DNA from: Clostridia bacterium
Lineage (GTDB): Bacteria > Bacillota > Clostridia > UMGS1883 > UMGS1540
Direction: 5' to 3'
Length of the DNA: 64,000 nucleotides
NCBI GenBank assembly: GCA_017620205.1
Contig: JAFZQX010000003.1
Coordinates: 3,713 to 67,712, forward strand
Below the pieces are notes generated by a model. It did not search any database. It saw only the letters and a program-made list of their open reading frames with translations, and was not told where the DNA came from. Positions 696 through 18,595 of the stretch are shown here, one piece after another (positions within the stretch are counted from its first letter, which is position 1; each line of letters starts with the position of its first letter). The position numbers and the translations under genes were made by a program.

Positions 696-706
696 GGAGG
701 TAACAT

Positions 707-1228: not shown

Positions 1229-1515
1229 AACCGTATTTAAGAAATAAAATACCTTCCTCACCGGAAGAAATACCGGAAAACACCGCTTATGAAGCGGGCT
1301 ATCTTGTAACAAAGAACGCGGGCTGGAGAAATGTTAAACCCGTTATAAGCATAGGTAAGTGCGTGGGGTGTCTTAACTGTTATCTCTATTGTCCCGACGG
1401 GGTAATATACCAAGACAACGGTAAAGCTGCAATAGACTATGATTTTTGCAAAGGCTGCGGTATATGCAGAAAAATCTGCAAAACAGGCGCGATAGAAATG
1501 GAGGCGGAAAAGTAA
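1225..1515 (+). CDS. porD: 2-oxoacid:ferredoxin oxidoreductase delta subunit, 2x[4Fe-4S] ferredoxin
   Basis: Two CxxCxxCxxxCP-type cluster motifs. Overlaps its neighbours by 4 nt and 1 nt. Confidence 0.8.
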   Translation: MKPYLRNKIPSSPEEIPENTAYEAGYLVTKNAGWRNVKPVISIGKCVGCLNCYLYCPDGVIYQDNGKAAIDYDFCKGCGICRKICKTGAIEMEAEK

Positions 1516-2687
1516 TGGCGAAAAAATTCTTATCGGGCAATGAAGCGTTTGCCTACGGAGTAAGCCTTGCGCGTCCGCAGGTGATATCGGCTTATCCCAT
1601 AACGCCTCAGACTATTGTTGTTGAAAAGCTGTCTGAATTTGTTGAAGACGGCAGTCTTAAAGCAGAATTTATCCATGTTGAGTCGGAGCACTCAGCGCTG
1701 TCATGTGCAATGGGGGCGTCGTCTGTCGGCGCAAGAGCATTCACAGCCACTTCATCGCAAGGGCTTTTGTATATGGCAGAGTGCCTTACATATGCCGCAG
1801 GCGGAAGATTTCCCATTGTAATGATGAATGCCAACCGTTCAACTGCGCTTCCGTGGAATATTTACGGCGATCAGCGCGACTCGCTTTCACAGCTTGACAG
1901 CGGCTGGATTCAGGCATACGCGGAAAACGCTCAGGAAGCGCTTGATCTGGCTCTTATGAGTTTTTATATAGCGGAACACAAGCGTGTTTCAACTCCGTTT
2001 ATGGCAAATCTTGACGGTTTTGTACTGACTCACACTTATGAAGTTGTTGATATTCCCACTCAAGATAAGGCGGACGAATTTTTACCGGGATATGAAACGG
2101 AGAACAAGCTTGACCTTGAAAACCCCAGAAATCTTGCTTTTTCCGCAGGGCCCGAACACAATACGGTATTTAAATACAAAGAGCATTTGGGACTTTTAAA
2201 TTCTAAAAAAGCAATAGAAGAAGCAGAAGCAAAGTTTTCAAAAATTTTTGGCAGACAGTACAGCGGTCTTGTGGAGAAATACAAAACGGATGACGCAGAG
2301 TATATTTTGATAACGGTTGGAAGTATATCGGGACTTGTCAAAGAGGTTGTTGACGGGCTGAGAGCTTCGGGGAGAAAAGTCGGTCTTTTAAGACTCCGCT
2401 ATTTAAGGCCTTTACCGAATGAGGAAATAGCCGATGCCCTGAAAGGGGCAAAAGCGGCGGCCGTGCTTGAAAAAGACATTTCGTTCGGTAATGAAGGCAC
2501 AGTATATACAAATGTCAATTCCGCTTTGCATAAAGCAAAAATAAATATTCCTAATTCAAATTATATCGGCGGTCTCGGAGGAAAGAATATTTCGGCAGAG
2601 GAAATAAAAAGCATTTTTGACGATATGGAAAAGGGAAAGTCAGCGGTTAAGTTTCTCGGAATAGGAGGTGCTTTTGATGGCAATTAA
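1515..2687 (+). CDS. porA: 2-oxoacid:ferredoxin oxidoreductase alpha subunit
   Basis: MAKKFLSGNEAFAYG... N-terminus typical of the POR alpha subunit. The ATG at 1515 overlaps the porD stop. The track ORF started earlier, at 1446. Confidence 0.85.
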   Translation: MAKKFLSGNEAFAYGVSLARPQVISAYPITPQTIVVEKLSEFVEDGSLKAEFIHVESEHSALSCAMGASSVGARAFTATSSQGLLYMAECLTYAAGGRFPIVMMNANRSTALPWNIYGDQRDSLSQLDSGWIQAYAENAQEALDLALMSFYIAEHKRVSTPFMANLDGFVLTHTYEVVDIPTQDKADEFLPGYETENKLDLENPRNLAFSAGPEHNTVFKYKEHLGLLNSKKAIEEAEAKFSKIFGRQYSGLVEKYKTDDAEYILITVGSISGLVKEVVDGLRASGRKVGLLRLRYLRPLPNEEIADALKGAKAAAVLEKDISFGNEGTVYTNVNSALHKAKINIPNSNYIGGLGGKNISAEEIKSIFDDMEKGKSAVKFLGIGGAFDGN

Positions 2688-3564
2688 CGCAAAAACACTT
2701 GATAAGACCGAATATTTTTACGGTCATAAAGCCTGCGCGGGATGCGGAGGAAGCCTTGCCGTCAGAATTGCGCTGAAAGTTTTGGGAGAGAGGTCAATAG
2801 CGGTACTTCCTGCGGGATGTATGTCGGCAGTCGGTTTCAATTTTCCGCAGCTTTGCTTCGGAAATAACGCAATAATTTCTACATTTGCGGGAACGGCATC
2901 CATGCTTACCGGTGTTGAAGCGGGGCTTCGGGCGCAGGGAATTAAAGACTTTCACGCTGTAGGCTTTGCGGGCGACGGAGGAACCGCGGATATCGGCATT
3001 CAGGCGCTTTCGGGCGCAATAGACCGAAACGATAATATCATTTATATTTGTTATGACAATGAAGCTTATATGAATACGGGTATTCAAAAAAGCTCATTAA
3101 CGCCGTTCGGCGCGAAAACCACAACAACGCCTGCGGGAAAGAATATTCGCGGCAATTTAAGACCAAAAAAGAATATGTTTGAAATTGTTGCGGCACACGG
3201 CATTCCCTATGCCGCAACCGCAAGCATAGGCTATATAAATGATTTCATGCGTAAAGTCCAAAAGGCTTCCGAGATAGAAGGAACAAAATTTATTCATGTT
3301 CTTGCCCCGTGCCCGACAGGATGGGGAGTGCCGACAGACGCAACGGTTGACATAGCAAAAGAAGTAGTTGACTGCGGACTTTGGTATCTCGCGGAATATG
3401 AGGACGGTGAGTTTAAACTAAATCACAGACCGTCAGTTTTTACAGACGCAGGAGAATATTTAAGAAAGCAAAGCAGGTTCAGACACCTAAAGGATGAAGA
3501 TATAGAGACTATAATAAATGCCCGTGATAAAAAATGGGATTTTATAAATAAGAACTTTAAATAG
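2677..3564 (+). CDS. porB: 2-oxoacid:ferredoxin oxidoreductase beta subunit (TPP-binding)
   Basis: CAGCGG motif and a GDG...N TPP motif. RBS AGGAGG lies 7 nt upstream of the ATG at 2677. Confidence 0.85.
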   Translation: MAINAKTLDKTEYFYGHKACAGCGGSLAVRIALKVLGERSIAVLPAGCMSAVGFNFPQLCFGNNAIISTFAGTASMLTGVEAGLRAQGIKDFHAVGFAGDGGTADIGIQALSGAIDRNDNIIYICYDNEAYMNTGIQKSSLTPFGAKTTTTPAGKNIRGNLRPKKNMFEIVAAHGIPYAATASIGYINDFMRKVQKASEIEGTKFIHVLAPCPTGWGVPTDATVDIAKEVVDCGLWYLAEYEDGEFKLNHRPSVFTDAGEYLRKQSRFRHLKDEDIETIINARDKKWDFINKNFK

Positions 3565-3581
3565 ATTATGGAGGTTAAAAA

Positions 3582-4922
3582 ATGAGCAGAGATATAAATA
3601 ACAAATTCTGGGATGAGGAGCTTGAAACTCTTCCCCGCGAAGAGCTTGAAAAAAGACAGCTTGAGGATTTAAAAGAGATAGTAAAGTTTGCGTATGATAA
3701 CGCGCCTTATTATAAGCGTTCCTTTGATGAGGCGGGCGTAAAGCCGGAAGATATAAAGACACTCAAGGACATTGAAAAATTCCCGTATATAGATAAAAAG
3801 ACACAGCGTGATACGCAGGGCGTAGGTTCGTTTTTGGGCGAGCTTGCGGCCGTTCCCGAGGAAGATGTAGTATTTATCTCAACGTCTTCGGGTTCAACGG
3901 GTGTTCCGACAATGAGCCCCTTTACAAAAAAAGATTTTGATGAGTTTCAGGAAACAGAGAGCCGCTGGTTCTGGCAGGTGGGAATGCGTCCGAGTGACCG
4001 CTATGTTCATGCGCTGAACTTTTCTCTTTATGTAGGCGGTCCCGACGTAATCGGGGCGCAGAATCTCGGCGCCCTTTGTATCTGGGGCGGTACACTTCCG
4101 AGCGAAAGACTTCTCTTTGTTTTGAAAACATATCAGCCGACAGTTATATGGACTTCGCCGTCATACGCATGGCAGCTCGGAGAAAAGGCTTTAAAGAGCG
4201 GAATAGATCCCAAAAAGGATTTAAACATAAAGAAAATTATAGTAGCCGGCGAGCTCGGCGGTTCAATAGAAGCTACAAGACGCGCAATTGAAGATATATG
4301 GGGCGCAGAGGTATATGACTTTTACGGTCTTTCAGATATTTTCGGTGCTTGCGCCGCAATGTGCGAAGCAAAAGACGGCTTACATATAGCAGAAAACCAT
4401 ATCCTTGTAGAAACGGTTGACATTCATACGGGCGAAATACTTGAGCCCGGACAGGTCGGCGAGCTTGTATTTACAACGCTCCGCAAACACGCAAGACCGC
4501 TTATCCGTTTCCGCACAGGCGATATAGGCTGGATAGACAAAACAAAGTGCTCGTGCGGAAGAACACACGGAAGAATTCATATCCAGGGCAGAAAGGACGA
4601 TATGTTTATCGTGTCTGCCGTTAATGTTTTCCCGAGCGATATCGAAGCGGTTGTCAGAGAACAGGAAGGCATAACGGGTGAATATCTTATCCGTATTTTT
4701 GAAAGAGATTTCACCAATAAATATTCGGTTGAAATTGAAAAAAATGCTGACAACACAAAAGATGATGAAACGATAGCATCGGAAGTATCTGCTGCACTTA
4801 AAGCACGTATCGGCGTAAAGCCCACAAGCGTTGTTGTTCATCCCGACGGCGGACTTGATACACGCTCAGAGCATAAATCAAGAAGAGTAATCGATGAAAG
4901 AAAGATAGATTATTCAATTTAA
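3582..4922 (+). CDS. phenylacetate-CoA ligase family (PaaK-like, AMP-forming)
   Basis: STSSGSTGVPT adenylation motif and the PaaK-family N-terminus. Confidence 0.8.
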   Translation: MSRDINNKFWDEELETLPREELEKRQLEDLKEIVKFAYDNAPYYKRSFDEAGVKPEDIKTLKDIEKFPYIDKKTQRDTQGVGSFLGELAAVPEEDVVFISTSSGSTGVPTMSPFTKKDFDEFQETESRWFWQVGMRPSDRYVHALNFSLYVGGPDVIGAQNLGALCIWGGTLPSERLLFVLKTYQPTVIWTSPSYAWQLGEKALKSGIDPKKDLNIKKIIVAGELGGSIEATRRAIEDIWGAEVYDFYGLSDIFGACAAMCEAKDGLHIAENHILVETVDIHTGEILEPGQVGELVFTTLRKHARPLIRFRTGDIGWIDKTKCSCGRTHGRIHIQGRKDDMFIVSAVNVFPSDIEAVVREQEGITGEYLIRIFERDFTNKYSVEIEKNADNTKDDETIASEVSAALKARIGVKPTSVVVHPDGGLDTRSEHKSRRVIDERKIDYSI

Positions 4923-4949
4923 TTTATAGATTCACGGAGGGGGTTCAAA

Positions 4950-6134
4950 ATGCCTGAAATATCAAAACGAACCGAAACATTTACCGATTCTGTAATCAGA
5001 AGAATGACAAGAATTTCTCTCAAATATGACGCTGTAAATCTTTCACAGGGATTTCCGGATTTTAAACCGCCCAAAGAAATACTTAAAAGGCTCAGCGAAG
5101 TTGCAAACGAGGATTTTCATCAATATTCAATAACATGGGGTGCGCAAAACTTCCGTGAGGCGCTCGCAGAAAAACAGTCGGCTCTTATGGGCAGAGAAAT
5201 AGATCCCAACAGAGAAATAGTAGTAACCTGCGGAAGCACGGAAGCGATGATGGCGGCAATGATGACAGTTACAAATCCGGGCGATAAGGTCATTGTATTT
5301 TCACCGTTTTATGAAAACTACGGCGCGGATACAATTTTATCCGGGGCAGAGCCTATATATGTTCCGCTTCATCCGCCCGAATTCAATTTCAGCGTTGATG
5401 AACTTGAGAAGGCTTTTTCTCAAAAGCCGAAAGCGCTTATTCTTTGCAATCCATCTAATCCCTGCGGAAAAGTATTTACATTTGAGGAGCTTAAAATAAT
5501 AGCCGATCTGGCAAAGAAGTATGACGCATTTGTAATTACCGATGAAGTATATGAACATATAGTTTATGAGCCGTATAAGCATATTTATATGGCGTCTCTT
5601 CCGGGTATGTGGGAGCGGACAATTTCCTGCTCGTCCCTTTCAAAAACATACTCTGTAACGGGTTGGAGACTCGGATATATTATAGCACCTGAAAATGTTA
5701 TTGACGCGGCAAAAAAAGTGCACGACTTTTTAACGGTCGGCGCGGCGGCGCCTTTGCAGGAGGCGGCTGTAACAGGTCTTAAATTCGGTAATGACTATTA
5801 TAAACAGCTTCAAAACAAATACACCGAAAAGCGGAACCTGTTTCTTAAAGGCCTTGACGATATCGGCATAGCGCACACGGTGCCGCAGGGGGCATATTAC
5901 ATTTTGCTTAATATCAGCGAATTCGGCTTTGATAGCGATTTGGAATTCTGCGAAACGCTTGCGCGCGATGTCGGCGTCGGAGCGGTGCCGGGCTCAAGCT
6001 TTTTCCGCGAAGATGTAAATAGCCTTATAAGGCTTCATTTTGCAAAAAAGAACGAAACATTACTTGAGGCCTTAAACAGGCTTGAACACATAAGAACAAA
6101 GATTAAAAAACGTAAATCATACCCCTTATTTTAA
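4950..6134 (+). CDS. PLP-dependent aminotransferase class I/II (aromatic or aspartate type)
   Basis: Aminotransferase fold motifs (SLSKTYSVTGWRLGY). Last gene of the operon before a terminator. Confidence 0.8.
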   Translation: MPEISKRTETFTDSVIRRMTRISLKYDAVNLSQGFPDFKPPKEILKRLSEVANEDFHQYSITWGAQNFREALAEKQSALMGREIDPNREIVVTCGSTEAMMAAMMTVTNPGDKVIVFSPFYENYGADTILSGAEPIYVPLHPPEFNFSVDELEKAFSQKPKALILCNPSNPCGKVFTFEELKIIADLAKKYDAFVITDEVYEHIVYEPYKHIYMASLPGMWERTISCSSLSKTYSVTGWRLGYIIAPENVIDAAKKVHDFLTVGAAAPLQEAAVTGLKFGNDYYKQLQNKYTEKRNLFLKGLDDIGIAHTVPQGAYYILLNISEFGFDSDLEFCETLARDVGVGAVPGSSFFREDVNSLIRLHFAKKNETLLEALNRLEHIRTKIKKRKSYPLF

Positions 6135-6135
6135 A

Positions 6136-6175
6136 AAAACCGCAAACGGCTTGTTCGTTTGCGGTTTTTTAAAAA
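6136..6175. terminator. bidirectional rho-independent terminator
   Basis: aaaaaaaccgcaaacggcttgttcgtttgcggtttttt. A GC stem flanked by an A-run and a T-run, between convergent genes. Confidence 0.8.
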
Positions 6176-6179
6176 TTAC

Positions 6180-6551
6180 CTATTTATATGCAACTGCATC
6201 TATTTCCGCCAGCGCTCCTTTCGGCAGGGCGGAAACCTCTACACAGGAACGGGCGGGTTTGTTTTTAAAGTATTTGGCGTATACTTCGTTGAATTTTGCA
6301 AAATCGTTTATGTCTTTCAGAAAACAAGTTGTTTTAATAACATTGTCAATGCTGCTGCCCGCTTCTTGCAAAACTGCGGACAGATTTTTAAGTATCCTTT
6401 CTGTCTGCGTCTCAATATCGGCGTGAACAACTTCTCCCGTAACGGGGTCTATAGGCATCTGACCCGAGGTGTAGATAAAATCGCCTGCTTTAATCGCCTG
6501 CGAATATGGCCCTACGGCTTTGGGGGCGGTTATTTCTTGTGTTTTATTCAT
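6180..6551 (-). CDS. ridA: RidA family reactive-intermediate deaminase (YjgF/TdcF)
   Basis: Full-length match to the RidA family in length and motifs. Confidence 0.85.
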
Positions 6552-7702
6552 CGTATTTTCCTTCTTTCATTATTATTTCCGGTTTCATCGAATTTTTCAA
6601 GAAACGAATGCTTTATGCCGTTTTGCTTGTACCCGATAAGGGTATCAAGATTTACGTTTTGTATGCTTTTATAAATATTGTTTTTAATTTGCGGATTGTC
6701 TTTTTCAAGCTCTGCAATCAGTTGTTTTGTTACCTGCCGTTTTGATTTGTTATCTGGATTACAGGAGGTACAGGTGTCGGTGAATTTACATGCGCATTGC
6801 AGAAAGTGCAGTCCGTTGTAATCGCGCCAATGCTTTATATCCTTTTCGTGAATCAAATATAGCGGTCTGATAAGCTCCATACCCTCAAAATTAGTGCTGT
6901 GCAGCTTTGGCATCATAGCCTGCATCTGACCGCCGAACAGCATACCCATCAGCGTTGTTTCAATAACATCGTCAAAATGATGACCGAGCGCGATTTTGTT
7001 GCACCCAAGCTCTTTTGCTTTGCTGTACAAATAGCCGCGTCTCATCCTCGCGCATATATAACACGGCGATTTTTCGATATGAAGCACCGACTCAAAAATA
7101 TTAGTTTCAAAAACGGTTATGGGGATATCCAAAAGACGTGCGTTTTCCTCTATGATTTTTCTGTTTTCCGCAGAATATCCCGGATCCATCACAAGGTAAA
7201 CTACTTCAAAGGGATATTTGTTGTGGCGTTTAAGCTCCTGAAACAGCTTTGCCATAAGCATACTGTCCTTGCCGCCCGAAATACAGACGGCAACCCTGTC
7301 GTTTTCCTTTAAAAGCTCATATTCATTAAGCGCCAAAGTGAACTTGCTCCAGATGCTTCTGTGAAACTTTTTTATAATGCTGTGTTCCATATCTTTTGCT
7401 TTATCTCTGTTTTCCGAGAGCGTTTTAAGCATATAGCCGTAGTAACCTTCTTTGAGATTTACGGCATTATATCCACGGCTTCTAAGCTCTTCGGAAACAT
7501 TATAGCTTATTATGCCGCTTTTACACATAACTACAATGAGCTTATCTTTTTGGAGCTCCGCAAGTCTGTCATTGATTTCGTTTTGAGGAATACTTACCGC
7601 GCCTTTTATGCTGCCGTATTTAAACGCAATTTCATCGCGGATGTCAACTATTATATAATTATCTAAACTGTTTAAATCCTTAACCGATATTTCTTCTTTC
7701 AT
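6548..7702 (-). CDS. ttcA: rhodanese domain fused to a TtcA-like PP-loop tRNA thiolase (2-thiocytidine synthetase family)
   Basis: N-terminal rhodanese with the active-site Cys (VVMCKSG). Then an SGGKDS PP-loop plus CxxC and C-x-x-x-x-x-C-x-x-C clusters as in TtcA. Confidence 0.7.
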
Positions 7703-7784
7703 TGTTCCGCCTATCTCCGCTCAATACGGTTTGCTTGTTTCATAAAAGTGTTCCGCCTTGCCCTTTGAGATTTTGGGGGAGGGG

Positions 7785-8939
7785 TTATAAACGCTTTTTA
7801 ATTTGAGTTATTGCTTTTTCCAATACGCTTTTCGGACAGGCAATATTCATGCGCATAAACCCGTTTCCGCCTTCTCCGAAAATAAAACCGCTGCTCATCC
7901 AAACGCCGCAGTCACGTATGAAGAATTCTTCAAGTTCACGGGAGTTTAAGCCGAGTTTCCGGCAATCAAGCCACATTAAATATGTGCCTTCCGGCGCTAT
8001 GGGTTTGATTTTTGTGTTTTCAAAGCTCTCTATTACGTAATCCGCGTTGCTTTTCAGATATTTCAGTAATTGCTGCAGCCACTCTTCGCCATGCCTATAT
8101 GCCGCTTTTGCGGCTGCCGCGGACATTATGCCCATTTCGCCCGCACAAGTTGACAGTATTTCTCTCTCTGTTTTATTGCGGATATCCGTGTTTGCTATTA
8201 TTAAATTGGCGCCTTTTATTCCCGCAAGATTAAATGTTTTTGTAACAGAAGTTACAGCTACCGTTATATCTGCCGCTTCTTTTGACAATGACGCTGCCGG
8301 GAAATGATTTTTAAACACCAGATCCGAATGGATTTCGTCGGAAACTATTATGACATTATGCCTCTTGCAAATGTTAACTACATTGCAAAGCTCTTCTTTG
8401 TCCCATACTCTGCTTACGGGATTGTGAGGAGAACAAAAAAGAAGAAGTTTTACGTTTTCTTCAACTATTCTGTTCTCAAGGTCATTAAAATCAATATAAT
8501 ACTTCTGCCCGTCAAAATTTAATACGCTTACAACGGGTCGCCTTTTAAGGGATTTTATAATGTTTAAAAAGGGGTGATATACCGGCTGCATAATAAGAAC
8601 GGAATCACCGGCTTTTGACAGAGCTCTGATTGCTGCCGATATCCCAAACAAAACGCCCTCACAGGGGACAATCCAATCTCGCTTTATATCAAAACCAAAC
8701 CGTTTTTTGTTCCATTTAATCAAAAGATCATAGTATTCATCGTCAAGCTCCGTGTAGCCGAATATGCCGCATTCAGAAGCAGACTGCAGGGCGTCTGTTA
8801 TTTCGGGCGCTGTCTTAAAATCCATATCCGCCACCCACATTGGAATAACATCGCTTACATCGGGATAACGGGGATGCTTCTTATACTTTATTGAATTTGT
8901 GTTTTTACGGTTATAGACCGTGTCAAAATCATATTTCAT
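7785..8939 (-). CDS. patB: PLP-dependent C-S lyase, MalY/PatB family (cystathionine beta-lyase/cysteine desulfhydrase-like)
   Basis: MKYDFDTVYNRKNTNSIKY... N-terminus characteristic of PatB/MalY. Start chosen at the internal ATG that abuts the tcdA stop. Confidence 0.8.
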   Translation of the reverse strand: MKYDFDTVYNRKNTNSIKYKKHPRYPDVSDVIPMWVADMDFKTAPEITDALQSASECGIFGYTELDDEYYDLLIKWNKKRFGFDIKRDWIVPCEGVLFGISAAIRALSKAGDSVLIMQPVYHPFLNIIKSLKRRPVVSVLNFDGQKYYIDFNDLENRIVEENVKLLLFCSPHNPVSRVWDKEELCNVVNICKRHNVIIVSDEIHSDLVFKNHFPAASLSKEAADITVAVTSVTKTFNLAGIKGANLIIANTDIRNKTEREILSTCAGEMGIMSAAAAKAAYRHGEEWLQQLLKYLKSNADYVIESFENTKIKPIAPEGTYLMWLDCRKLGLNSRELEEFFIRDCGVWMSSGFIFGEGGNGFMRMNIACPKSVLEKAITQIKKRL

Positions 8940-9688
8940 TTTATTAAATCTTTTATTACCTCTCCCGCTATTATAAGCCCCGCAACGCTCGGCACAAAAG
9001 CGTTGCTGCCCGGAACCTGATTGCGTACCGTACACGTTCTTTTTGTGTCAGGCGGACAAATGCAGTGGTGCTTACATGAATTATCGTCACTTTCAATCGG
9101 CGTTAAGGGAGACTCTTTTGAATAAACACATTTGAGCTTTTTTATTCCTCTTTTTCTGCACTCATAGCGCATAACTTTAGCAAGCGGACAAACAGAAGTT
9201 TTGTAAATATCCGCAACTTCAAATTTTGTGGGATCGAGTTTGTTGCCCGCGCCCATGCAAGAAATAATGGGAGTTTTGGTATCCGCCGCATTTTGAACTA
9301 AGGCTATCTTGCCTGTTACGGTATCAATAGCGTCTACAACATAATCGTAAAGTGAAAAATCAAACTCCGCGGCGGTTTCGGGCGTGTAAAAGGTTTTGTA
9401 GGTGCTTATTTTTATCCCGGGATTTATCTCCGCGATTCTTTCTGCGGCCACATCTACCTTGTATTTGCCGACAGTTTTTCTTGTCGCGTAAATTTGTCTG
9501 TTGATATTTGTCAGGCATATTTTGTCGTCATCTATTATATCTATGGCGCCTATACCGGAGAGGGCAAGCGCTTCCACGGTAAAGCCGCCTACACCGCCTA
9601 TCCCAAACACGGCAACGCGGGAGACCCAAAGCTTTTGCATTGCGTCTTTGCCTAAAATAAGCTCTGTTCTTGAATATTGATTCAACAT
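8936..9688 (-). CDS. tcdA: tRNA threonylcarbamoyladenosine dehydratase TcdA/CsdL (ThiF/MoeB E1-like)
   Basis: VAVFGIGGVGG...EALALSGIGAIDIIDDDKICLTNINRQ closely parallels E. coli TcdA. Confidence 0.85.
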   Translation of the reverse strand: MLNQYSRTELILGKDAMQKLWVSRVAVFGIGGVGGFTVEALALSGIGAIDIIDDDKICLTNINRQIYATRKTVGKYKVDVAAERIAEINPGIKISTYKTFYTPETAAEFDFSLYDYVVDAIDTVTGKIALVQNAADTKTPIISCMGAGNKLDPTKFEVADIYKTSVCPLAKVMRYECRKRGIKKLKCVYSKESPLTPIESDDNSCKHHCICPPDTKRTCTVRNQVPGSNAFVPSVAGLIIAGEVIKDLIK

Positions 9689-9700
9689 AAAATGTACTCC

Positions 9701-10276
9701 TTAAAGGATGTTTTCATAAATACTTTCACAGCTTCTCATTGCTAAAATTGTTTTGGAAATCAAATCGTCCAAAGACCATCCGAGCATTTCGGCGCCGCGC
9801 TCTATGACTTCTCTTGAACAGCCGGCGGCAAAATTTGAGTTTTTATACTTTTTCTTAACTGATTTGAGTTCAAGATCCGAAACGCTTTTTGAAGGTCGCA
9901 TAAGGGCAACAGCTCCGATAAGACCGGTAAGCTCATCTGCGGCATATAATACTTTTTCCATTTCGTGTTCAGGCTCTATATCAACCGTTATGGCGTAGCC
10001 GTGGCTTGCGGTTGCGTGAATCAATCTTTCGTCAAGCCCAAGCTCGCGCATTATTTCCTGTTCCTTTATACAGTGCTGAGTGGGAAACTGCTCAAAATCA
10101 AGGTCGTGAAGAAGACCTACTATACCCCAGAAATCTGCTTCATCACCGTATCCGAGCTCTCCTGCAAAATAGCGCATTACGCCTTCAACAATAACTGCGT
10201 GCTTTAAATGAAAATTGTCTTTATTATATTCACAAAGCAAATTCCACGCCGCATCTCTTGAAATCTCTTTATTCAT
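9701..10276 (-). CDS. HD-domain phosphohydrolase (HDIG-type)
   Basis: An H...HD...D metal-ligand pattern. The start was moved to the internal ATG with an RBS. Confidence 0.6.
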   Translation of the reverse strand: MNKEISRDAAWNLLCEYNKDNFHLKHAVIVEGVMRYFAGELGYGDEADFWGIVGLLHDLDFEQFPTQHCIKEQEIMRELGLDERLIHATASHGYAITVDIEPEHEMEKVLYAADELTGLIGAVALMRPSKSVSDLELKSVKKKYKNSNFAAGCSREVIERGAEMLGWSLDDLISKTILAMRSCESIYENIL

Positions 10277-10475
10277 CGTCTGACCCTCTTTCTTATCAAA
10301 CGGCAGTAAATACCTACTAATTTTATATATTATATACTTTTTTGCTATTAAAGTCAATCGTTTTGGGCCAGAAAGGCAGGCGCATAATATCTTTTGTTTA
10401 TATATAAAAGCTATAGCAAAGGAATAAACTATACATTTCTATAGCATTCAGGTATAGCTGCGCCAAAAAAATAGT

Positions 10476-10506
10476 ATTGACATATAATAAAAACGGTGTT
10501 ATAATA
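10476..10506 (+). promoter_or_regulatory. sigma-A promoter (TTGACA-17-TATAAT)
   Basis: Exact consensus -35 and -10 hexamers with a 17-nt spacer, about 55 nt upstream of the leader ORF. Confidence 0.8.
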
Positions 10507-10532
10507 CCTATAAAACACGTAGGATTTATAGG
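10507..10532. promoter_or_regulatory. perfect 8-bp inverted repeat CCTATAAA-N10-TTTATAGG at the transcription start
   Basis: Palindrome immediately after the -10 element. Possible operator or 5' hairpin. Confidence 0.45.
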
Positions 10533-10559
10533 ATATAAACTGCTGAAAGGAAATATATC

Positions 10560-10649
10560 ATGAAAAACATTAATAAATCACGTCAGATGAATAATTGTTT
10601 CTGTTGCTGTATTTTATGTGTCCGCATAGGCGATACGGTCTGTTTGTGA
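10560..10649 (+). CDS. Cys-rich leader peptide MKNINKSRQMNNCFCCCILCVRIGDTVCL (putative attenuator)
   Basis: RBS AAAGGA lies 9 nt upstream. 6 of 29 codons are Cys. The stop is 21 nt before an intrinsic terminator. Sits ahead of the Met-to-Cys operon. Not in the ORF track (below 60 aa). Confidence 0.55.
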   Translation: MKNINKSRQMNNCFCCCILCVRIGDTVCL

Positions 10650-10670
10650 TTGCTTTTTTTAAAGTATAAC

Positions 10671-10711
10671 GGCTCCGTCTATGTGTATAAAAGCAGGCGG
10701 AGCCTTTTTAT
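10671..10711 (+). terminator. intrinsic terminator/attenuator (GGCTCCGTCT...AGGCGGAGCC + TTTTTAT)
   Basis: 10-bp stem with one G-U wobble, a 14-nt loop and a U-tract, located in the 5' leader 27 nt upstream of the first structural gene. Confidence 0.65.
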
Positions 10712-10737
10712 ATATCATAAAGAAATGAGGATAGCTT

Positions 10738-11652
10738 ATGACATTATACAGGGAAAGCGTAACGGCAAAAATATGTGCTTTTTCAAGAGCGCATCACTCA
10801 ATGCGGAAAAGCTCAAAAATATTTGATGACAACCTCGCATTTGATATTCTGGGTAAAAAAGAATATGAAAGAATAGGACAGATGATAGAGAACGGATTTA
10901 AAAATCGTGAATATAATCCATTAAGCGCTTTCAACAAGCAATTTGTTTCGGAAGAAATAGAAAAATATATTTCTCCCATAACGCTTTCAAGAGCCGCTTT
11001 TGCGGAAGAAAGTCTTCTGCAGTTTGCCGAAAAGAAAGGCGCCTGTCAGTATGTTATTTGCGGTGCGGGAATGGATACGTTTCCATTTCGCAACGAAAAC
11101 AGGAATATAAAAATATTTGAACTTGATTATCCCGATACGCAGGAGTATAAACTGAAAAAAATCAATGAGCTTAAATGGGATATCCCGTCTGATGTTTACT
11201 ATGTGCCGATAGACTTTTCGAAGGACGATATGAGTATAAAGTTAAAAGAAGCCGGATTTTCAAAAGATATACCGACATTTTTTTCAATACTCGGAGTAAC
11301 ATATTATCTTACGCTTTCGGTTTTTACAAAGACGCTTGAGATGATAAATGAAATATCGTCTCCCGAAAGCGAAATAGTTTTTGATTATCCCGATGAAACA
11401 ACATTTGCCGGCAAAGACAATGAAAGGGTATTGCGTCTTCGCCAGATAGCGTCGGGACTCGGCGAGATAATGAAACAGGGCTTTAGCCTGAATGAAATTG
11501 AAGAAGCGCTCAAAAAAAGCGGTTTTGGAATAAAAAAGCATCTGCCGCCCGGGGAGATACAAAAAACACTTCGCGGGCGCGGCTACAGCCAACAGGCGTT
11601 TGAAAACATCCATTTAATCAAAGCGGTAAAAGGAAAGGAATTTAAAATATGA
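10738..11652 (+). CDS. class I SAM-dependent methyltransferase (TIGR00027/LCM-like O-methyltransferase family)
   Basis: Rossmann SAM-binding core (VICGAGMDT). First gene of the operon, overlapping metK by 4 nt. Confidence 0.65.
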
Positions 11653-12824
11653 GCAGTTTTATTTTTACATCGGAATCGGTAACAAGCGGTCATCCCGATA
11701 AAGTCAGCGATATAATTTCCGATTCAATTCTCGATGCGTATCTTGAAAAGGATCCTCATGCGAGAGTTGCGGTTGAAACAGTGGTAAAAAACAACACCGT
11801 GATTTTAGCGGGTGAAATATCGTCAAATGCAAAAACGGATATTGAAAATACAGTGCGGAAAGCGATAAATGAAATAGGATATAACAGAGGGGAACTCGGT
11901 TTCAGCGGCGATACGGCTGAAATAATAATTCGCATAGACAAACAGTCTCCCGATATAGCACAGGGAGTAGACAGCGCACTTGAAAGCCAAAGCGAAATAG
12001 GTGCGGGTGATCAGGGAATGGTTTTCGGATATGCGTCGGATGAAACGGAGGAGCTTATGCCTTTGCCCATATCCCTTGCGCATAAGCTTGCAAAAAAGCT
12101 TCAGGAAGTCCGTGAAAACGGCACTCTCCCGTATCTCCGCCCAGACGGAAAAACCCAGGTTTCGATCAAATATGAAAACGGCGTACCGGCAGGAATTGAC
12201 ACCGTTTTAGTATCCGCACAGCATGATGAAGACATAACGCAGGAACAAATCCGGAAAGATATAACAGAATATGTTATCAAACCCGTTATACCCGGGGAGT
12301 TTCTTGATATTACAACAAAAATACTTGTAAATCCTACGGGCAGGTTCGTAATAGGAGGCCCTGTGGGCGACAGCGGTCTTACAGGGCGCAAGATTATTGT
12401 AGATACATACGGAGGCGCCGCAAGACACGGCGGCGGTGCGTTTTCCGGGAAAGACCCGACAAAGGTTGACAGAAGCGCGGCATACGCGGCAAGATATGCT
12501 GCAAAAAATATAGTTGCGGCGAAGCTTGCAAAGAAAGCGGAGATACAAATCGCGTATGCAATAGGCGTTGCAAATCCCGTTTCGGTAAGCGTTGATACTT
12601 TCGGAACGGGCGTTGTTGCAGATGACAAGCTGCACGCGGCAATACTTGAAGTGTTTGATTTCAGACCCAAAGCAATCATAAAAGAGCTGGAGCTTCAAAA
12701 ACCGGTATATAAAGAAACCGCAGCTTACGGTCATTTCGGACGGGACGAATCTTTGTTTAATTGGGAAAAAACAGATAAAGCAGCACTGCTTATCGGATAT
12801 TTAAGAGAGCGTGGAGAAATATGA
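11649..12824 (+). CDS. metK: S-adenosylmethionine synthetase
   Basis: Canonical GHPDK motif and GGGAFSGKD motif. Confidence 0.95.
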
Positions 12825-13282
12825 AAACTATTGCGAGCTTTACAGTAAACCACGATAAACTGCAGAAGGGCATTTACATTTCAAGAAAAGACGGGGATGT
12901 TATTACATACGACATAAGAATGAAAAAGCCAAACGGCGGCGACTATCTTTCAAATGAAACTATTCATACAATAGAACATCTTTTTGCAACGTATGTGAGA
13001 AACGGAGCTTTTTCCGAAAGCGTAATATATGTCGGCCCTATGGGCTGCCGTACAGGGTTTTACTTTATCCTTAGAGATAAAGTGTCTCATGCCGAAGTGA
13101 TTTCACTTACAAAAGAAGTTTTTGCTTTTATCGCAAACTTTGAAGGCGCGATACCGGGAACAAGACGCATAGAGTGCGGCAATTACCTGGAACACAACCT
13201 TAAGGACGCAAAAAAAGAAGCAAGGGGAATGGGCAAAGTTTTATCGGACTGGACAGAGGAACAAATGTATTATGAAAACTAA
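12821..13282 (+). CDS. luxS: S-ribosylhomocysteine lyase
   Basis: HTIEH motif and the conserved C of the LuxS family. Confidence 0.9.
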
Positions 13283-13997
13283 TAAACTGATAGGCGTTAT
13301 AGGCGCAATGGAAAGCGAAACTGAAAAGATTAAAACATTGCTTACGGAAAAGCGTCTGTTTACCGAAAGCGGAATAGAATTTGTCAGGGGACGGCTGCAC
13401 GGGCAAGATGTTATTGTTGCCAAAAGCGGTATCGGAAAAGTAAACGCCGCAATATGTACGCAGATTATGATAGATAAGTTCTCTGTTGACTCAATAATCA
13501 ATACAGGCGTCGCGGGGGCAATTGACAAACGGCTGAGCGTGGGTGATCTGATAATCGGAACAACGCTTGTCCAGCATGATTTTGACGTAACTGCGTTCGG
13601 GTATTCCAAAGGATATATGTGTACGGGGAAAAACCCAAACGAGCCGACAAAGTATCATTCGGATAAACGCCTTGTAAATAAAATTTTCCGCGCGGCAAAA
13701 ACAAACTTAAAGGACAAAAGAATAATAACGGGCATCATAGCTTCCGGAGATGTGTTTGTTTCATCTTCCGAAGATAAAGAAATGTTAAAAGAGGTTTTTA
13801 ACGCGTCGGCAGTTGAAATGGAAGGCGCCGCAATTGCGCAAACGGCGGCGGCAGTTAGCGTTCCGTTTGCCGTTATAAGAACCGTGTCGGATAATGCGGA
13901 CGGAGAAGCAGAAAAATCTTTTGATATATTTGAAAAAGAAGCAGCCGAGCAGTCGGCATATGTAATAAATAAATTTATTGAATCGGAGGCAATCTGA
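13272..13997 (+). CDS. mtnN: 5'-methylthioadenosine/S-adenosylhomocysteine nucleosidase
   Basis: IGAMESE motif. Full-length Pfs/MtnN. Confidence 0.9.
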   Translation: MKTNKLIGVIGAMESETEKIKTLLTEKRLFTESGIEFVRGRLHGQDVIVAKSGIGKVNAAICTQIMIDKFSVDSIINTGVAGAIDKRLSVGDLIIGTTLVQHDFDVTAFGYSKGYMCTGKNPNEPTKYHSDKRLVNKIFRAAKTNLKDKRIITGIIASGDVFVSSSEDKEMLKEVFNASAVEMEGAAIAQTAAAVSVPFAVIRTVSDNADGEAEKSFDIFEKEAAEQSAYVINKFIESEAI

Positions 13998-13998
13998 A

Positions 13999-15159
13999 AT
14001 GAAAAGTTATAAAGAGATAGAATCCGCGCTTATACACGGCGGGATTTACGGTGATAAACAAACGGGAGCTGTAAATGTTCCTATTTACCAGACATCAACG
14101 TATGAGCAGGAAGCTCTCGGCAAGCATAAGGGCTATGAATATTCCCGCACGGGAAATCCTACCAGAGCAGCTCTTGAAGCGCTTATAGCCGAGCTTGAAG
14201 AAGGTACGGACGGCTTTGCGTTTGCGTCGGGAATGGCGGCTATCACGGCGGTGCTGAGCCTTTTTAAAACCGGAGACAAAATTATTATTTCAAGCAATGT
14301 ATATGGCGGCACCTTCCGCGTGCTTGACAAAGTCTTTACAAACTTTGGCATAGCATATTCCATAGAAGATACAACAGATATTGACGCCTTGGATAAAAAA
14401 ATAACTGACGATGTTAGGGCGGTTTTAATAGAAAGTCCGGCAAACCCGCTTTTGTCGGTTACCGATTTGTCCGCAGTTGCCGCGCTTGCCAAAAAACACG
14501 GAATTCTTACGATAGTAGATAATACTTTTATGACGCCGTATTTGCAAAAGCCCCTAAAACTCGGCGCCGATATTGTTTTGCACAGCGCAACGAAATACCT
14601 CGGCGGTCACAGCGACCTTGTAGCGGGACTTGTTGCGGTAAATTCCAAAGCGCTTGCAGAGCGTCTTGCGTTTATACAAAATGCGACAGGCGGTGTTTTG
14701 CAGCCGTTTGATTCTTTTTTACTTATACGCGGCATCAAAACTCTCGGAGTCAGAATGGACAGACATGTTGAAAATGCAGAAAAAGCGGCAGAGTTTTTAA
14801 GAAACCATAAAGCGGTCAAAAAAGTGTATTATCCGGGTTTTGAAGACGCCAAAGGTTATGAAATAAACAAAAAACAGGCAAAAAACGGCGGAGCTATGAT
14901 TTCCTTTGAGCTTTACGAAAACTACAATGCAGAAAAATTCTTCTCATCATTAAAGCTTATCGCGCTTGCCGAAAGTTTGGGCGGCGTAGAATCGCTTGTA
15001 TGCCACCCCGCCAGCATGACGCACGCCTCAATTCCGTATGAGACGCGCCAAAAGGTGGGGATTACGGACGGTCTTATTAGGCTGTCGATAGGTATAGAGC
15101 ATATAGATGATATTTTAAATGATTTAGAGCAGGCCATAACGGAAAGTGAGGTAAAATAA
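13999..15159 (+). CDS. mccB: Cys/Met-metabolism PLP enzyme (cystathionine gamma-lyase/homocysteine gamma-lyase, MccB/MetC-like)
   Basis: MetB/MetC/MccB family motifs including the PLP lysine region. Start at the internal ATG just after the mtnN stop. Confidence 0.8.
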   Translation: MKSYKEIESALIHGGIYGDKQTGAVNVPIYQTSTYEQEALGKHKGYEYSRTGNPTRAALEALIAELEEGTDGFAFASGMAAITAVLSLFKTGDKIIISSNVYGGTFRVLDKVFTNFGIAYSIEDTTDIDALDKKITDDVRAVLIESPANPLLSVTDLSAVAALAKKHGILTIVDNTFMTPYLQKPLKLGADIVLHSATKYLGGHSDLVAGLVAVNSKALAERLAFIQNATGGVLQPFDSFLLIRGIKTLGVRMDRHVENAEKAAEFLRNHKAVKKVYYPGFEDAKGYEINKKQAKNGGAMISFELYENYNAEKFFSSLKLIALAESLGGVESLVCHPASMTHASIPYETRQKVGITDGLIRLSIGIEHIDDILNDLEQAITESEVK

Positions 15160-16070: not shown

Positions 16071-16101
16071 AATTAAAAAATGCGAAAGCCGGGTGGAGTT
16101 T

Positions 16102-16539: not shown

Positions 16540-16578
16540 TGTTTGAAGCGAAAGTCTTTAAACAGGAGGAAAAAACAA

Positions 16579-18406: not shown

Positions 18407-18595
18407 GTGCGGAATAAGGATAAGCGTCAGCCGCAGGGAACAAACAAATACGAATTTGAAGGACGCGAGTATATCGTCGAGTCTGTTTATAATGATAACG
18501 GACTTGAAGATATAGCCAGTATATTAAGAAGGATGATACTTTGCCAAGCGCAGACGCTAAAGGAGAAACACAATGAAAAGCAAAACCAGGGATAA
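18407..18595 (+). CDS. small hypothetical protein upstream of and overlapping the recombinase gene
   Basis: GTG start with a strong AAAGGAGG RBS. 62 aa. Overlaps the recombinase start by 23 nt. Confidence 0.4.
   Translation: MRNKDKRQPQGTNKYEFEGREYIVESVYNDNGLEDIASILRRMILCQAQTLKEKHNEKQNQG

Follow-up and report, generated by a model that had tools for sequence, protein, structure and literature searches.

The window, by which we mean the whole stretch of 64,000 nt analysed here, comes from a gut Clostridia bacterium and contains five closely linked ORFs on its minus strand, encoding an HD-like protein, TcdA, PatB, a rhodanese::TtcA-like fusion and RidA. The question raised by this locus is whether these genes form a self-contained sulfur relay, in which cysteine sulfur would be passed to a persulfide on the rhodanese and from there to a thionucleoside, as had been proposed in an earlier note on this DNA. 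The linkage on which that proposal was built was confirmed, the five ORFs and their signals being located as follows.

10329 to 10357, minus strand: promoter-like site TTGACT-17-TATAAT, called from its match to the consensus (11/12); the start codon of the HD-like gene follows about 50 nt downstream
9701 to 10276, minus strand: first gene, HD-superfamily-like protein of 191 aa with an invariant H..HD..H..D pattern
8936 to 9688, minus strand: tcdA, putative E1-like tRNA t6A37 dehydratase homologue of 250 aa (Pfam ThiF, NCBIfam and identity to E. coli TcdA)
7785 to 8939, minus strand: patB, predicted PLP-dependent C-S beta-lyase of 384 aa (TIGR04350), start codon overlapping the tcdA stop (ATGA)
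7703 to 7784, minus strand: patB/fusion spacer of 82 nt, in place of which relatives L084 and L089 have an overlap of the two genes
6548 to 7702, minus strand: rhodanese::PP-loop fusion gene (Pfam Rhodanese at aa 8-90, ATP_bind_3 at aa 137-301)
7433 to 7681, minus strand: rhodanese domain at the N terminus of the fusion (aa 8-90; Pfam Rhodanese 56 bits, cutoff 22)
6548 to 7405, minus strand: predicted TtcA-family PP-loop thiolase domain, aa about 100-384 (NCBIfam TtcA and identity to E. coli TtcA)
6180 to 6551, minus strand: ridA, predicted enamine/imine deaminase of 123 aa (Pfam Ribonuc_L-PSP), start codon overlapping the fusion stop (ATGA)
6133 to 6170, either strand: bidirectional intrinsic terminator common to the end of ridA and a convergent aminotransferase gene

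The 4-nt overlaps that had been attributed to the cluster are present at two junctions, tcdA/patB and fusion/ridA, but not at the remaining two, which display gaps of 12 nt (HD/tcdA) and 82 nt (patB/fusion). Neither a terminator-like nor a promoter-like site was called in the 82-nt spacer by a consensus scan, and no strong-stemmed terminator-like hairpin was found in the intergenic stretches of the operon. The same scan listed 5-bp sites at two places within the HD-like and patB reading frames; in all, it found no more sites than in shuffled sequence. The 3' end of ridA is followed by a strong hairpin and then U7 (-21.7 kcal/mol, z = -5.2, with 0/200 shuffles folding as well); its G+C-rich core stem of 9 bp spans 6140-6164, the predicted fold adds A-U pairs to it, and A6 and T7 stand on either side. 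With a single promoter-like site, ATGA overlaps at two junctions and a strong terminator at the end, the five genes are likely to form one transcription unit. Its neighbour in back-to-back orientation is a methyltransferase-metK-luxS-mtnN-mccB-cysK-like-Rrf2-LysR operon; a CymR-like Rrf2 gene is found at 16093-16539 of the window. The operon is situated within a cysteine/methionine-metabolism island.

The fusion is a TtcA-family protein with a rhodanese domain of its own. Its top NCBIfam match is TtcA with 200 bits, below the cutoff of 272, against 73 bits for TilS_N and 61 bits for TtuA, the ThiI-related matches being marginal, and it shares 30% identity with E. coli TtcA across 259 aa (E = 3e-41). 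The PP-loop domain displays the SGGKDS motif, a C214-x2-C217 pair and a cysteine cluster C303-x-C305-x5-C311-x2-C314. TtcA requires a [4Fe-4S] cluster held by three cysteines, on which the sulfur has been proposed to sit (PMC4081106), and in the alignment C214 and C217 fall on Cys122 and Cys125, published as Fe-S ligands of the E. coli enzyme. The PP-loop region aligns to the [4Fe-4S] structures of TtuA and NcsA, which are the nearest solved. A TilS-type paralogue, considered as an alternative identity, was ruled out by the difference between the TtcA and TilS_N scores and by the retention of the Fe-S ligand cysteines. The PP-loop, C214, C217, C303 and C305 are invariant in 81/81 sequences. 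The rhodanese domain, also part of the initial reading, was upheld: its active-site loop is C60-KSGII-S66 (Cys60 codon at 7523-7525), and 80 of 81 family members retain the catalytic cysteine when one-column alignment shifts are allowed. At least 592 species representatives encode the fusion, as a rule in one gene; identity is 55-86% among Lachnospiraceae, Oscillospiraceae and other groups, and carriers include Anaerostipes hadrus (L022), Coprococcus intestinihominis (L024) and Bovifimicola ammoniilytica (L015). Homologues up to 66% identical lack the rhodanese, which means that some lineages can do without a carrier in cis. A literature search turned up no account of a rhodanese-TtcA fusion.

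The ThiF-family protein matches TcdA best in NCBIfam (163 bits, below the cutoff of 304, against 92 bits for MoeB) and shares 35% identity with E. coli TcdA from end to end (E = 4e-50); PGAP names it tRNA threonylcarbamoyladenosine dehydratase. It contains a Cys4 loop, C205-x3-C209-x-C211-x8-C220 (nt 9029-9076), which is kept in 17 of 18 Clostridial homologues and missing from E. coli TcdA, and which is in all appearance specific to Clostridia. Since the TtcA and TcdA scores both lie below their equivalog cutoffs, they do not fix the substrate position of either enzyme. The label of HD hydrolase given to the first gene was retained in part. Pfam returned no match for this protein even at E = 10, but a weak NCBIfam match to HDIG was obtained (E = 0.006), and the best PDB fold matches of its AlphaFold model (pLDDT 87) are all HD domains, albeit weak ones (TM 0.5-0.56, E about 0.03). 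Homologues 81-89% identical exist, with the JGI name 'predicted hydrolase (HD superfamily)'.

PatB is assigned with 434 bits to TIGR04350 (cutoff 340), its nearest solved structures being 4dgt, cystalysin 1c7n, B. subtilis PatB 6qp3 and cysteine-S-conjugate beta-lyases, and its Lys234 aligns with position 238 of cystalysin in an SKTFN motif. These features indicate a class I/II beta-eliminating lyase rather than a persulfide-forming desulfurase. Class I/II beta-lyases of the cystalysin and PatB kind release H2S or thiols together with aminoacrylate, without a persulfide being formed on the enzyme. We know of no persulfidation of a rhodanese by a PatB-type lyase and, to our knowledge, a rhodanese cannot be loaded directly by free H2S. 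Because PatB is a beta-eliminating lyase, the proposed step from cysteine to the rhodanese persulfide is one that we infer. RidA scores 171 bits against TIGR00004 (cutoff 106).

The conservation of the cluster was assessed in 80 diverse species-level loci around the fusion, 7 close relatives (at least 70% identity) and 5 TcdA-centred loci. TcdA is located near the fusion in 12/80 diverse loci, as its direct neighbour in 10 of these, in both gene orders and in 6 of the 19 sequence clusters represented; it accompanies the fusion in 6/7 close relatives, and in L095 it overlaps a rhodanese-less homologue. PatB accompanies the fusion in 4/7 close relatives and is near it in 4-5 of the 80 diverse loci. 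The order is LarE-TcdA-PatB-fusion-RidA in L084, TcdA-LarE-PatB-fusion in L089 and TcdA-LarE-PatB-two inserted genes-fusion in L085, the stop and start codons of PatB and fusion overlapping in L084 and L089. In L066, where the fusion is 62% identical, the four genes are rearranged as TcdA-fusion-PatB-HD. Co-conservation is hence observed in the nearest relatives and, reordered, in L066. RidA adjoins the fusion in only 2/80 diverse loci, which weakens its suggested place beside the lyase. PatB had also been placed in the position held by CsdA beside TcdA. This arrangement is not general, PatB being adjacent in none of the 5 TcdA-centred loci. A class V cysteine desulfurase adjoins the fusion in none of the 80 loci, three being found at 4.5-6.6 kb.

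Other neighbours of the fusion in the 80 loci include CysK (6), Cys_Met_Meta_PP, a Cys/Met gamma-PLP family (about 8), and Rrf2 (5-6), as well as amino-acid ABC transporters and ThiS-ThiF-JAB clusters. LarE homologues stand beside TcdA in L084, L085, L089 and L069, and the HD-like gene lies within 1.4 kb of the fusion in 6/80 loci and at 0.8-5.3 kb in L084, L085 and L089. CysK, Cys/Met PLP enzymes, Rrf2, LarE and the HD-like gene are about as common near the fusion as PatB, which places the fusion in cysteine-metabolism islands. The strongest link of the fusion is therefore that to TcdA, which recurs across Clostridia, while the lyase link is mainly restricted to close relatives of this bacterium. 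TcdA and the TtcA-like enzyme, a pair that was secondary in the first reading, form the conserved core, to which PatB, RidA, HD and LarE are variable additions.

We tentatively favor an explanation in which a single operon, within its cysteine/methionine island, co-expresses two tRNA anticodon-loop modification enzymes together with a local cysteine-cleaving module. By homology, TcdA would convert t6A37 to ct6A37, and the fusion would act as a [4Fe-4S]-type TtcA-family thiolase, its product most probably being s2C32 or a closely similar 2-thiolation. By analogy with E. coli TtcA, TtuA and ThiI, the target carbonyl would be adenylated by the PP-loop and the adenylated base attacked by a hydrosulfide on the free iron of a cluster held by C214, C217 and one cysteine of the C303-C314 group, sulfur being delivered to this cluster in cis from a Cys60 persulfide of the rhodanese. 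In this clade, PatB may produce sulfide from cysteine, or thiocysteine from cystine, by beta-elimination beside the thiolase, and RidA may clear the 2-aminoacrylate by-product; this idea of a PatB sulfur relay is plausible but weakly supported. In E. coli, s2C32 and t6A37 occur together on tRNA-Ser(GCU) and on tRNA-Arg(UCU), so TcdA and the TtcA-like enzyme plausibly share tRNA substrates; the four E. coli tRNAs with s2C32 are listed in PMC5372745.

A distinct possibility, to be taken seriously, is that the genes merely belong to a shared sulfur regulon under common cysteine-responsive control. PatB, as a cystathionine beta-lyase or cysteine desulfhydrase, and RidA, cleaning up aminoacrylate, would then serve ordinary cysteine and methionine metabolism, and the thiolase would draw its sulfur from a housekeeping cysteine desulfurase or ambient sulfide, with no transfer from PatB to the rhodanese. 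The shifting sulfur amino-acid genes around the fusion, the adjacent metK-luxS operon and a PatB no commoner than other cysteine genes and missing from all TcdA-centred loci are in line with this, and tRNA thiolases can be members of cysteine regulons. However, the ATGA overlap of tcdA and patB in the window and the stop-start overlaps of PatB and fusion in L084 and L089 hint at co-expression in fixed stoichiometry and not at a loose regulon, the operon has no methionine-biosynthesis genes of the metA/metI type, and the same four genes reappear reordered in L066. The fusion might instead thiolate a small molecule (a free nucleotide, nucleobase or cofactor precursor), the HD-like protein being a phosphohydrolase and the ThiF-like protein a second adenylating enzyme of a thio-metabolite pathway. 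PP-loop thiolases with such substrates exist (YcfA and LarE), LarE homologues flank TcdA in four loci and the HD-like gene is a repeated neighbour, but this is unlikely: the very strong conservation, the breadth and the usual single-copy occurrence of the fusion resemble a housekeeping pattern, its closest characterised relatives are all tRNA enzymes, and its surroundings show no conserved biosynthetic core or export genes.

Direct use of free cysteine, as in YcfA-YcfC, is also improbable. The PP-loop enzyme would adenylate its substrate and add L-cysteine, PatB would cleave the C-S bond of the S-cysteinyl adduct to give a thiocarbonyl, and RidA would dispose of the aminoacrylate. PatB, fusion and RidA are indeed contiguous in the window and in L084, and a PP-loop enzyme with a PLP C-S lyase is an experimentally established thioamide route with aminoacrylate release, in 6-thioguanine biosynthesis (PMC12494993). 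The TtcA-type Fe-S cysteines and the rhodanese cysteine kept by the fusion would be needless in such a route, however, most fusions have no lyase nearby, YcfC differs from PatB in fold, and action on a tRNA-bound adduct would be unprecedented. A ubiquitin-like relay of the TtuC/TtuB/TtuA or Uba4/Urm1/Ncs6 type, in which a ThiF-family E1 adenylates a ThiS-like carrier and the rhodanese yields a thiocarboxylate for the Fe-S thiolase, is very improbable. An E1-like protein, a rhodanese and a TtuA/TtcA-family PP-loop enzyme constitute the protein set of this pathway minus the carrier, a ThiS-like or MoeB-like ThiF gene directly adjoins the fusion in L016, L035 and L043, and ThiS-ThiF-JAB precedes TcdA in L085. 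Yet the window operon has no ThiS-like ORF, its ThiF-family protein matches TcdA over its full length and well above MoeB, the TcdA surface blocks binding of ubiquitin-like proteins (PMC4405576), and the ThiS-ThiF-JAB clusters adjoin CysM/MetY-type genes, fitting cysteine or homocysteine synthesis.

The favored explanation, two co-expressed tRNA modification enzymes with a local cysteine-cleaving module, can be set against known systems. E. coli TtcA shares with the fusion the SGGKDS PP-loop, the CxxC pair and a further cysteine at the third-ligand position; the fusion, known here from its sequence, differs by an additional rhodanese domain of about 95 aa at its N terminus, by an 8-residue insertion giving the four-cysteine cluster C303/C305/C311/C314 and by its sub-cutoff equivalog score. 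In the TtuA-TtuB-TtuC and Ncs6-Urm1-Uba4 relays, a PP-loop/[4Fe-4S] enzyme, an E1-like protein and a rhodanese likewise occur together, but the operon encodes no ubiquitin-like carrier, its E1-like protein is of the TcdA type and its thiolase scores 200 bits for TtcA against 61 for TtuA. YcfA-YcfC of Erwinia amylovora resembles the operon in encoding a PP-loop ATP-dependent thiolase with a PLP C-S lyase (PMC12494993). According to that paper, YcfA couples free cysteine straight to a guanine nucleotide with no persulfide carrier; YcfC has a class V/C-DES-like fold, unlike the class I/II PatB. The CsdA-CsdE-TcdA (CsdL) system also links a TcdA homologue to sulfur-mobilising or sulfur-carrying proteins, a link whose reason in E. 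coli was called 'enigmatic' (PMC4405576). The operon lacks both a class V desulfurase and a SufE-like protein, no homologue of CsdA or CsdE is adjacent, and Clostridial TcdA differs in its Cys4 loop and in its recurring partner, a TtcA-like thiolase with or without rhodanese rather than PatB. Firmicute Rrf2-desulfurase-thiolase operons place a tRNA thiolase among cysteine-responsive genes with an Rrf2 regulator nearby, as in the window, although sulfur is mobilised there by a genuine class V desulfurase, with MnmA (s2U34) as the thiolase. Such operons are cymR-yrvO-mnmA in B. subtilis and Rrf2-iscS-iscU-trmU in C. perfringens, the latter described in PMC2940859. Like the fusion, E. coli ThiI (s4U8 synthase) is an adenylating PP-loop thiolase with its own in-cis rhodanese persulfide acceptor (PMC5372745), but its domain order is reversed, the rhodanese being C-terminal, and its PP-loop subfamily is different. 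The operon described here is real and partly conserved, and represents a variant of these known tRNA-thiolation systems. Bacterial ThiI itself has no Fe-S cluster and contains THUMP and NFLD domains, whereas the fusion combines a rhodanese with a TtcA-type domain that retains the Fe-S ligand cysteines.

Five open reading frames were called on the minus strand within 6180-10276, in the order that an earlier note, made from the sequence alone, had given. The operon that they form is real and comprises the following genes.

9701-10276, minus strand: HD-like gene, 191 aa (weak HDIG profile match; fold comparison of an AlphaFold model)
8936-9688, minus strand: tcdA-like gene of the ThiF family (163 bits on the TcdA model vs 92 on MoeB; TcdA equivalog cutoff 304)
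7785-8939, minus strand: patB (TIGR04350, 434 bits; cutoff 340)
6548-7702, minus strand: rhodanese::TtcA-like PP-loop fusion, 384 aa (Pfam Rhodanese at aa 8-90 and ATP_bind_3 at aa 137-301; top NCBIfam model TtcA)
6180-6551, minus strand: ridA (TIGR00004, 171.5 bits; cutoff 106)

The tight linkage with 4-nt overlaps that had been described for these genes applies to two junctions (ATGA at tcdA/patB and at fusion/ridA), whereas 12 nt separate the HD-like gene from tcdA and 82 nt separate patB from the fusion. The HD-like gene, the first of the operon, has a near-consensus promoter (TTGACT-17-TATAAT) some 50 nt upstream, and a strong bidirectional terminator (-21.7 kcal/mol, z = -5.2) follows ridA. 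This terminator is common to ridA and to a convergent plus-strand block (about 1-6134), in which an NMT1-type ABC transporter and a four-subunit 2-oxoacid:ferredoxin oxidoreductase are encoded. The following features flank the operon.

3582-4922, plus strand: PaaK-like phenylacetate-CoA ligase homologue
4950-6134, plus strand: class I/II aminotransferase
10738-17508, plus strand: methyltransferase (LCM-type, SAM)-metK-luxS-mtnN-mccB-like-cysK/mccA-like operon, then Rrf2 and LysR genes, transcribed divergently from the intergenic region that it shares with the five-gene operon
16093-16539, plus strand: CymR/IscR-like Rrf2 gene
16543-17508, plus strand: LysR regulator gene

Behind a perfect TTGACA-17-TATAAT promoter (10477-10505), the divergent operon has a leader of about 230 nt, in which neither an S-box nor a T-box was detected. 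It is comparable to the clostridial ubiG operon, devoted to methionine-to-cysteine conversion (PMC2940859). At gathering thresholds, Rfam returned no family in the whole 64-kb window, S-box and T-box being absent, and at relaxed thresholds the stretch 10200-10800, which takes in the divergent promoter region of 460 bp, yielded chance-level matches only. Two copies of the octamer CTATAGCA stand 29 nt apart at 10410-10446, between the two divergent promoters; the pair could be an operator, its length being too short to tell it from chance. The window contains a single tRNA gene, tRNA-Leu(GAG) at 20304-20387, which says nothing on C32 near the operon. It is adjoined, just past the sulfur island, by a large serine recombinase gene (Resolvase/Recombinase/Zn_ribbon/DUF4368; 18573-20255), and the two may mark the boundary of a mobile element.

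The fusion scores 200.3 bits on the NCBIfam TtcA model (NF007972), under the equivalog cutoff of 272 and far ahead of TilS_N (73) and TtuA (61). Over the C-terminal 290 residues it shares 30% identity with E. coli TtcA (BLAST, E = 3e-41), and the solved structures closest to it are those of the [4Fe-4S] thiolases TtuA and NcsA. The earlier note had left room for a TilS paralogue; the fusion is not one, since TilS_N reaches only 73 bits, under 93.6, and full-length TilS 22, under 606. Moreover, Fe-S-type cysteines are conserved, unlike what is expected of a TilS-type enzyme. Residue conservation was assessed on 80 species-level homologues and the window protein (n=81), aligned together with E. 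coli TtcA using MAFFT. The PP-loop S142-GGKDS-147 is invariant (81/81) and aligns with S47-S52 of E. coli TtcA. Equally invariant are C214 and C217 (81/81), which align with Cys122 and Cys125, both ligands of the [4Fe-4S] cluster in the E. coli enzyme (PMC4081106). The third ligand, published as Cys222, is C213 in the MG1655 sequence. BLAST pairs C210 and C213 of E. coli TtcA with C311 and C314 of the fusion, designating C314 as the candidate; the TtuA alignment and MAFFT designate C303 or C305 instead. All sequences have C303 and C305, 77-78 of the 81 have C311 and C314, and a rhodanese-less homologue (locus L095) that keeps the former pair without the latter favors C303 or C305. A third ligand is thus available, predicted to lie somewhere within the four-cysteine cluster C303/C305/C311/C314.

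The rhodanese domain (PF00581, 56 bits; cutoff 22) displays an active-site loop of the CX5[S/T/R] type, C60-KSGII-S66, whose cysteine is kept in 80 of the 81 sequences when one-column alignment shifts are allowed. Coupling of its loss to that of C311/C314 was considered and found imperfect: L064, the sole member without the rhodanese cysteine, has lost both, and L053 and L076 have lost only C311/C314. Given the retention of the PP-loop, of the cluster-ligand cysteines and of the rhodanese cysteine, the fusion is predicted to be a TtcA-family Fe-S-type thiolase carrying its own catalytic rhodanese.

More than 8000 database matches to the fusion were obtained, and both domains are present in all of the best 120. 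It occurs in at least 592 GTDB species representatives, and 459 representatives of 50% identity clusters match it at E <= 1e-30. Among the species that carry it, Anaerostipes hadrus, Coprococcus intestinihominis, Bovifimicola ammoniilytica and Oribacterium sp. C9 are in culture. Rhodanese-less homologues of 270-295 aa are also numerous and reach 66% identity. The source databases name the homologues only 'ATPase' or 'ATP-binding protein'; a literature search for a rhodanese-TtcA fusion or for s2C in Clostridia returned nothing relevant and many matches to 'TTCA' primer strings. By these sequence criteria the fusion is a widespread, uncharacterised and new architectural variant of TtcA.

The TcdA-like protein of the window shares 35% identity with its E. 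coli namesake over 250 aa, is named TcdA by PGAP and conserves, as C58, the equivalent of E. coli Cys66. A Cys4 motif (C-x3-C-x-C-x8-C) at residues 205-220, encoded at 9029-9076 on the minus strand, is found in 17 of 18 Clostridial homologues; the E. coli protein lacks it. In the L069 homologue the motif is deleted and the equivalent of Cys66 is missing as well. The motif falls in the loop that the structure of E. coli TcdA shows as disordered, and may be a metal site or a sulfur-acceptor site.

The label 'HD hydrolase' proved the weakest of the five. No Pfam match was obtained even at E = 10, a PDB sequence search was also empty, and the HDIG match (16 bits) is under the cutoff of 27.6. The top PDB fold matches to the AlphaFold model (pLDDT 87) are all HD domains, but weak ones (TM 0.5-0.56, E ~0.03). 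An H..HD..H..D pattern is invariant (H26, H57-D58, H87, H92 and D114), and homologues are 81-89% identical.

Gene neighborhoods were scored by tblastn and by clustering of neighboring ORFs in 80 species-level loci, with fusions that share 55-71% identity with that of the window. Many of these loci end at contig edges and the counts are consequently lower bounds.

Genes found by the fusion in the 80 loci
TcdA: at least 12 of 80; 10 directly adjacent on the same strand, upstream or downstream
Cys_Met_Meta_PP enzymes: at least about 8 of 80
HD-like: at least 6 of 80, within 1.4 kb
CysK: at least 6 of 80
Rrf2 regulator: at least 5-6 of 80
PatB-like: at least 4 of 80, same strand within 4.3 kb; 1 further on the opposite strand
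ThiS or MoeB-like ThiF: at least 3 of 80, adjacent
Class V desulfurase: at least 3 of 80, 4.5-6.6 kb distant, none adjacent
RidA: at least 2 of 80

TcdA and the TtcA-like thiolase are thus robustly linked. The linked loci span 6 of 19 sequence clusters, a diversity equal to that of the family overall, so that the link is not the accident of a single clade. In L095 (Oscillospiraceae MAG, 5001-6622), one of five contexts centred on TcdA, TcdA overlaps by 4 nt the gene of the rhodanese-less TtcA-like protein (290 aa), which shares 57% identity with residues 88-382 of the fusion. PatB, RidA, LarE and the HD-like gene constitute a recurrent yet variable shell, and the whole gene set tends to lie in cysteine-metabolism islands. 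In the nearest relatives, taken from a set with fusion identity of at least 70%, TcdA-PatB-fusion is kept.

Gene order in close relatives (fusion identity to the window protein)
Window, 100%: HD-TcdA-PatB-fusion-RidA
L084, 86%: LarE-TcdA-PatB-fusion-RidA, with HD and pdxST upstream
L085, 82%: ThiS-ThiF-JAB-TcdA-LarE-PatB-ECF-TPR-fusion
L089, 78%: TcdA-LarE-PatB-fusion-TPR-HD
L090, 72-74%: fusion-TcdA only
L092, 71%: fusion alone
L091, 70%: fusion-TcdA only

A different order, TcdA-fusion-PatB-HD, is seen in the more distant L066 (62%). The stop and start codons of PatB and the fusion overlap in L084 and L089.

A LarE-family PP-loop gene stands directly beside TcdA in four loci (L084:5260-6066, L085:4751-5566, L089:5030-5857 and L069:13926-14729); in the window this place is taken by the HD-like gene. 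All four LarE proteins score 328-341 bits on TIGR00268 (cutoff 150) and show the three-cysteine pattern typical of Fe-S-type LarE; LarA, LarB and LarC domains are absent among the listed genes near these loci. ThiS-like or MoeB-like ThiF genes lie immediately by the fusion at L016:9704-9907, L035:1495-2292 and L043:11185-11934, and in L085 TcdA comes after a ThiS-ThiF-JAB cluster (2574-3996). By analogy, such neighbors recall thiocarboxylate-based sulfur delivery. At L084:3785-5236, pdxS and pdxT, which encode PLP synthase, stand on the same strand and immediately upstream of LarE-TcdA-PatB-fusion-RidA, and pdxS follows the fusion in L054; this proximity may tie cofactor supply to the PLP-dependent lyase.

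PatB was also considered as a disguised class V desulfurase and rejected as such: it matches Aminotran_1_2, shows no Aminotran_5 match and has class I/II enzymes as nearest structures. Its PLP-binding lysine, Lys234 in 'TSVTKTFN' (SKTFN motif), pairs with Lys238, the PLP lysine of cystalysin. With E. coli CsdA as query, neither the window nor the genes adjoining the fusion in the 80 loci gave a homologue, and no ThiS-like carrier, LarE or second desulfurase was found in the window operon. By beta-elimination, enzymes of the PatB type turn cysteine into H2S or cystine into thiocysteine; aminoacrylate is the other product, which would explain the presence of RidA. They are not known to form an enzyme persulfide, and a relay to the rhodanese would therefore need thiocysteine or another sulfane carrier; alternatively, sulfide might load the cluster directly. 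The earlier note had placed PatB in the position of CsdA, as the partner of TcdA in a self-contained relay from cysteine through a rhodanese persulfide to a thionucleoside. The case for this replacement is weak: the enrichment of PatB does not exceed that of other genes of cysteine metabolism, and PatB was found in none of five TcdA-centred contexts picked regardless of neighbors.

By comparison with characterised relatives, the thiolase would adenylate a tRNA pyrimidine at its C2 carbonyl, the likeliest target being C32. A hydrosulfide on the free iron of the cluster would then replace the carbonyl, following the model proposed for TtcA (PMC4081106), and the rhodanese would hand over the sulfur of this hydrosulfide in cis as a persulfide, as in ThiI. 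PatB may be the supplier of the sulfur. The reading that we favor, tentatively and at somewhat less than even odds, is that PatB and RidA provide a clade-specific sulfur supply for two anticodon-loop enzymes: the TcdA link recurs across the family and PatB accompanies it in the nearest relatives. Co-localisation as a regulon, with no direct transfer, is only slightly less probable; it would suit the cysteine-metabolism islands, and the codon overlap of PatB and the fusion in two relatives is to be weighed on the other side. A YcfA-like mechanism, a ubiquitin-like carrier and a small-molecule mechanism jointly share the probability left by these two. For the carrier, the ThiS/ThiF neighbors of some loci are to be set against the window operon, in which no such carrier was found. 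The fusion and PatB do not match the YcfA-YcfC system, given the retained Fe-S and rhodanese cysteines and the class I/II nature of PatB.

The most valuable lead, ahead of the PatB relay, is the pairing of TcdA with the thiolase. Ser-GCU and Arg-UCU are among the four E. coli tRNAs that bear s2C32 (PMC5372745); both read ANN codons and hence also carry t6A/ct6A37. That two of the four s2C32 tRNAs bear both modifications offers a simple rationale for the link. In its boldest form, which we consider improbable, TcdA and the TtcA-like thiolase would be an ancient functional pair of Clostridia acting jointly on C32 and A37 of AGN-decoding tRNAs, with desulfurase-independent sulfur from a C-S lyase, LarE or rhodanese and with the Clostridia-specific Cys4 loop of TcdA contacting sulfur or metal. 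If true, it would offer a comparative-genomic account of the dependence of ct6A on the CsdA/CsdE relay in E. coli, long left without explanation, and could uncover a new sulfur-containing TcdA state or a new t6A derivative.

We know of studies of s2C32 and TtcA in Proteobacteria only, B. subtilis having neither. A widespread and highly conserved rhodanese-fused TtcA-like enzyme predicts an uncharacterised tRNA thiolation in gut Clostridia, one of the groups that dominate the human microbiome. TcdA itself poses a puzzle, as its modification contains no sulfur and the enzyme is yet tied to sulfur-transfer proteins; its adjacency to the thiolase, and to LarE and PatB in some lineages, gives a new and testable approach to it.

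If PatB feeds the thiolase, the route from cysteine to thionucleoside would bypass cysteine desulfurase, in parallel to the recently solved chemistry of YcfA-YcfC. In that system a PP-loop enzyme and a C-S lyase act via a cysteine S-adduct with release of aminoacrylate (PMC12494993), a published precedent for cooperation between such enzymes. YcfA uses free cysteine and no persulfide, and its partner YcfC is a class V-like C-S lyase without the desulfurase cysteine (PMC12494993); the fusion, in contrast, keeps Fe-S ligand cysteines and a rhodanese cysteine, and PatB belongs to another fold class (I/II). The likeness to ThiI lies in the rhodanese persulfide placed in cis to the thiolase. Finally, the dependence of E. 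coli TcdA on CsdA/CsdE is unexplained (PMC4405576), and it is this dependence within the CsdA-CsdE-TcdA system that the TcdA-thiolase link echoes.
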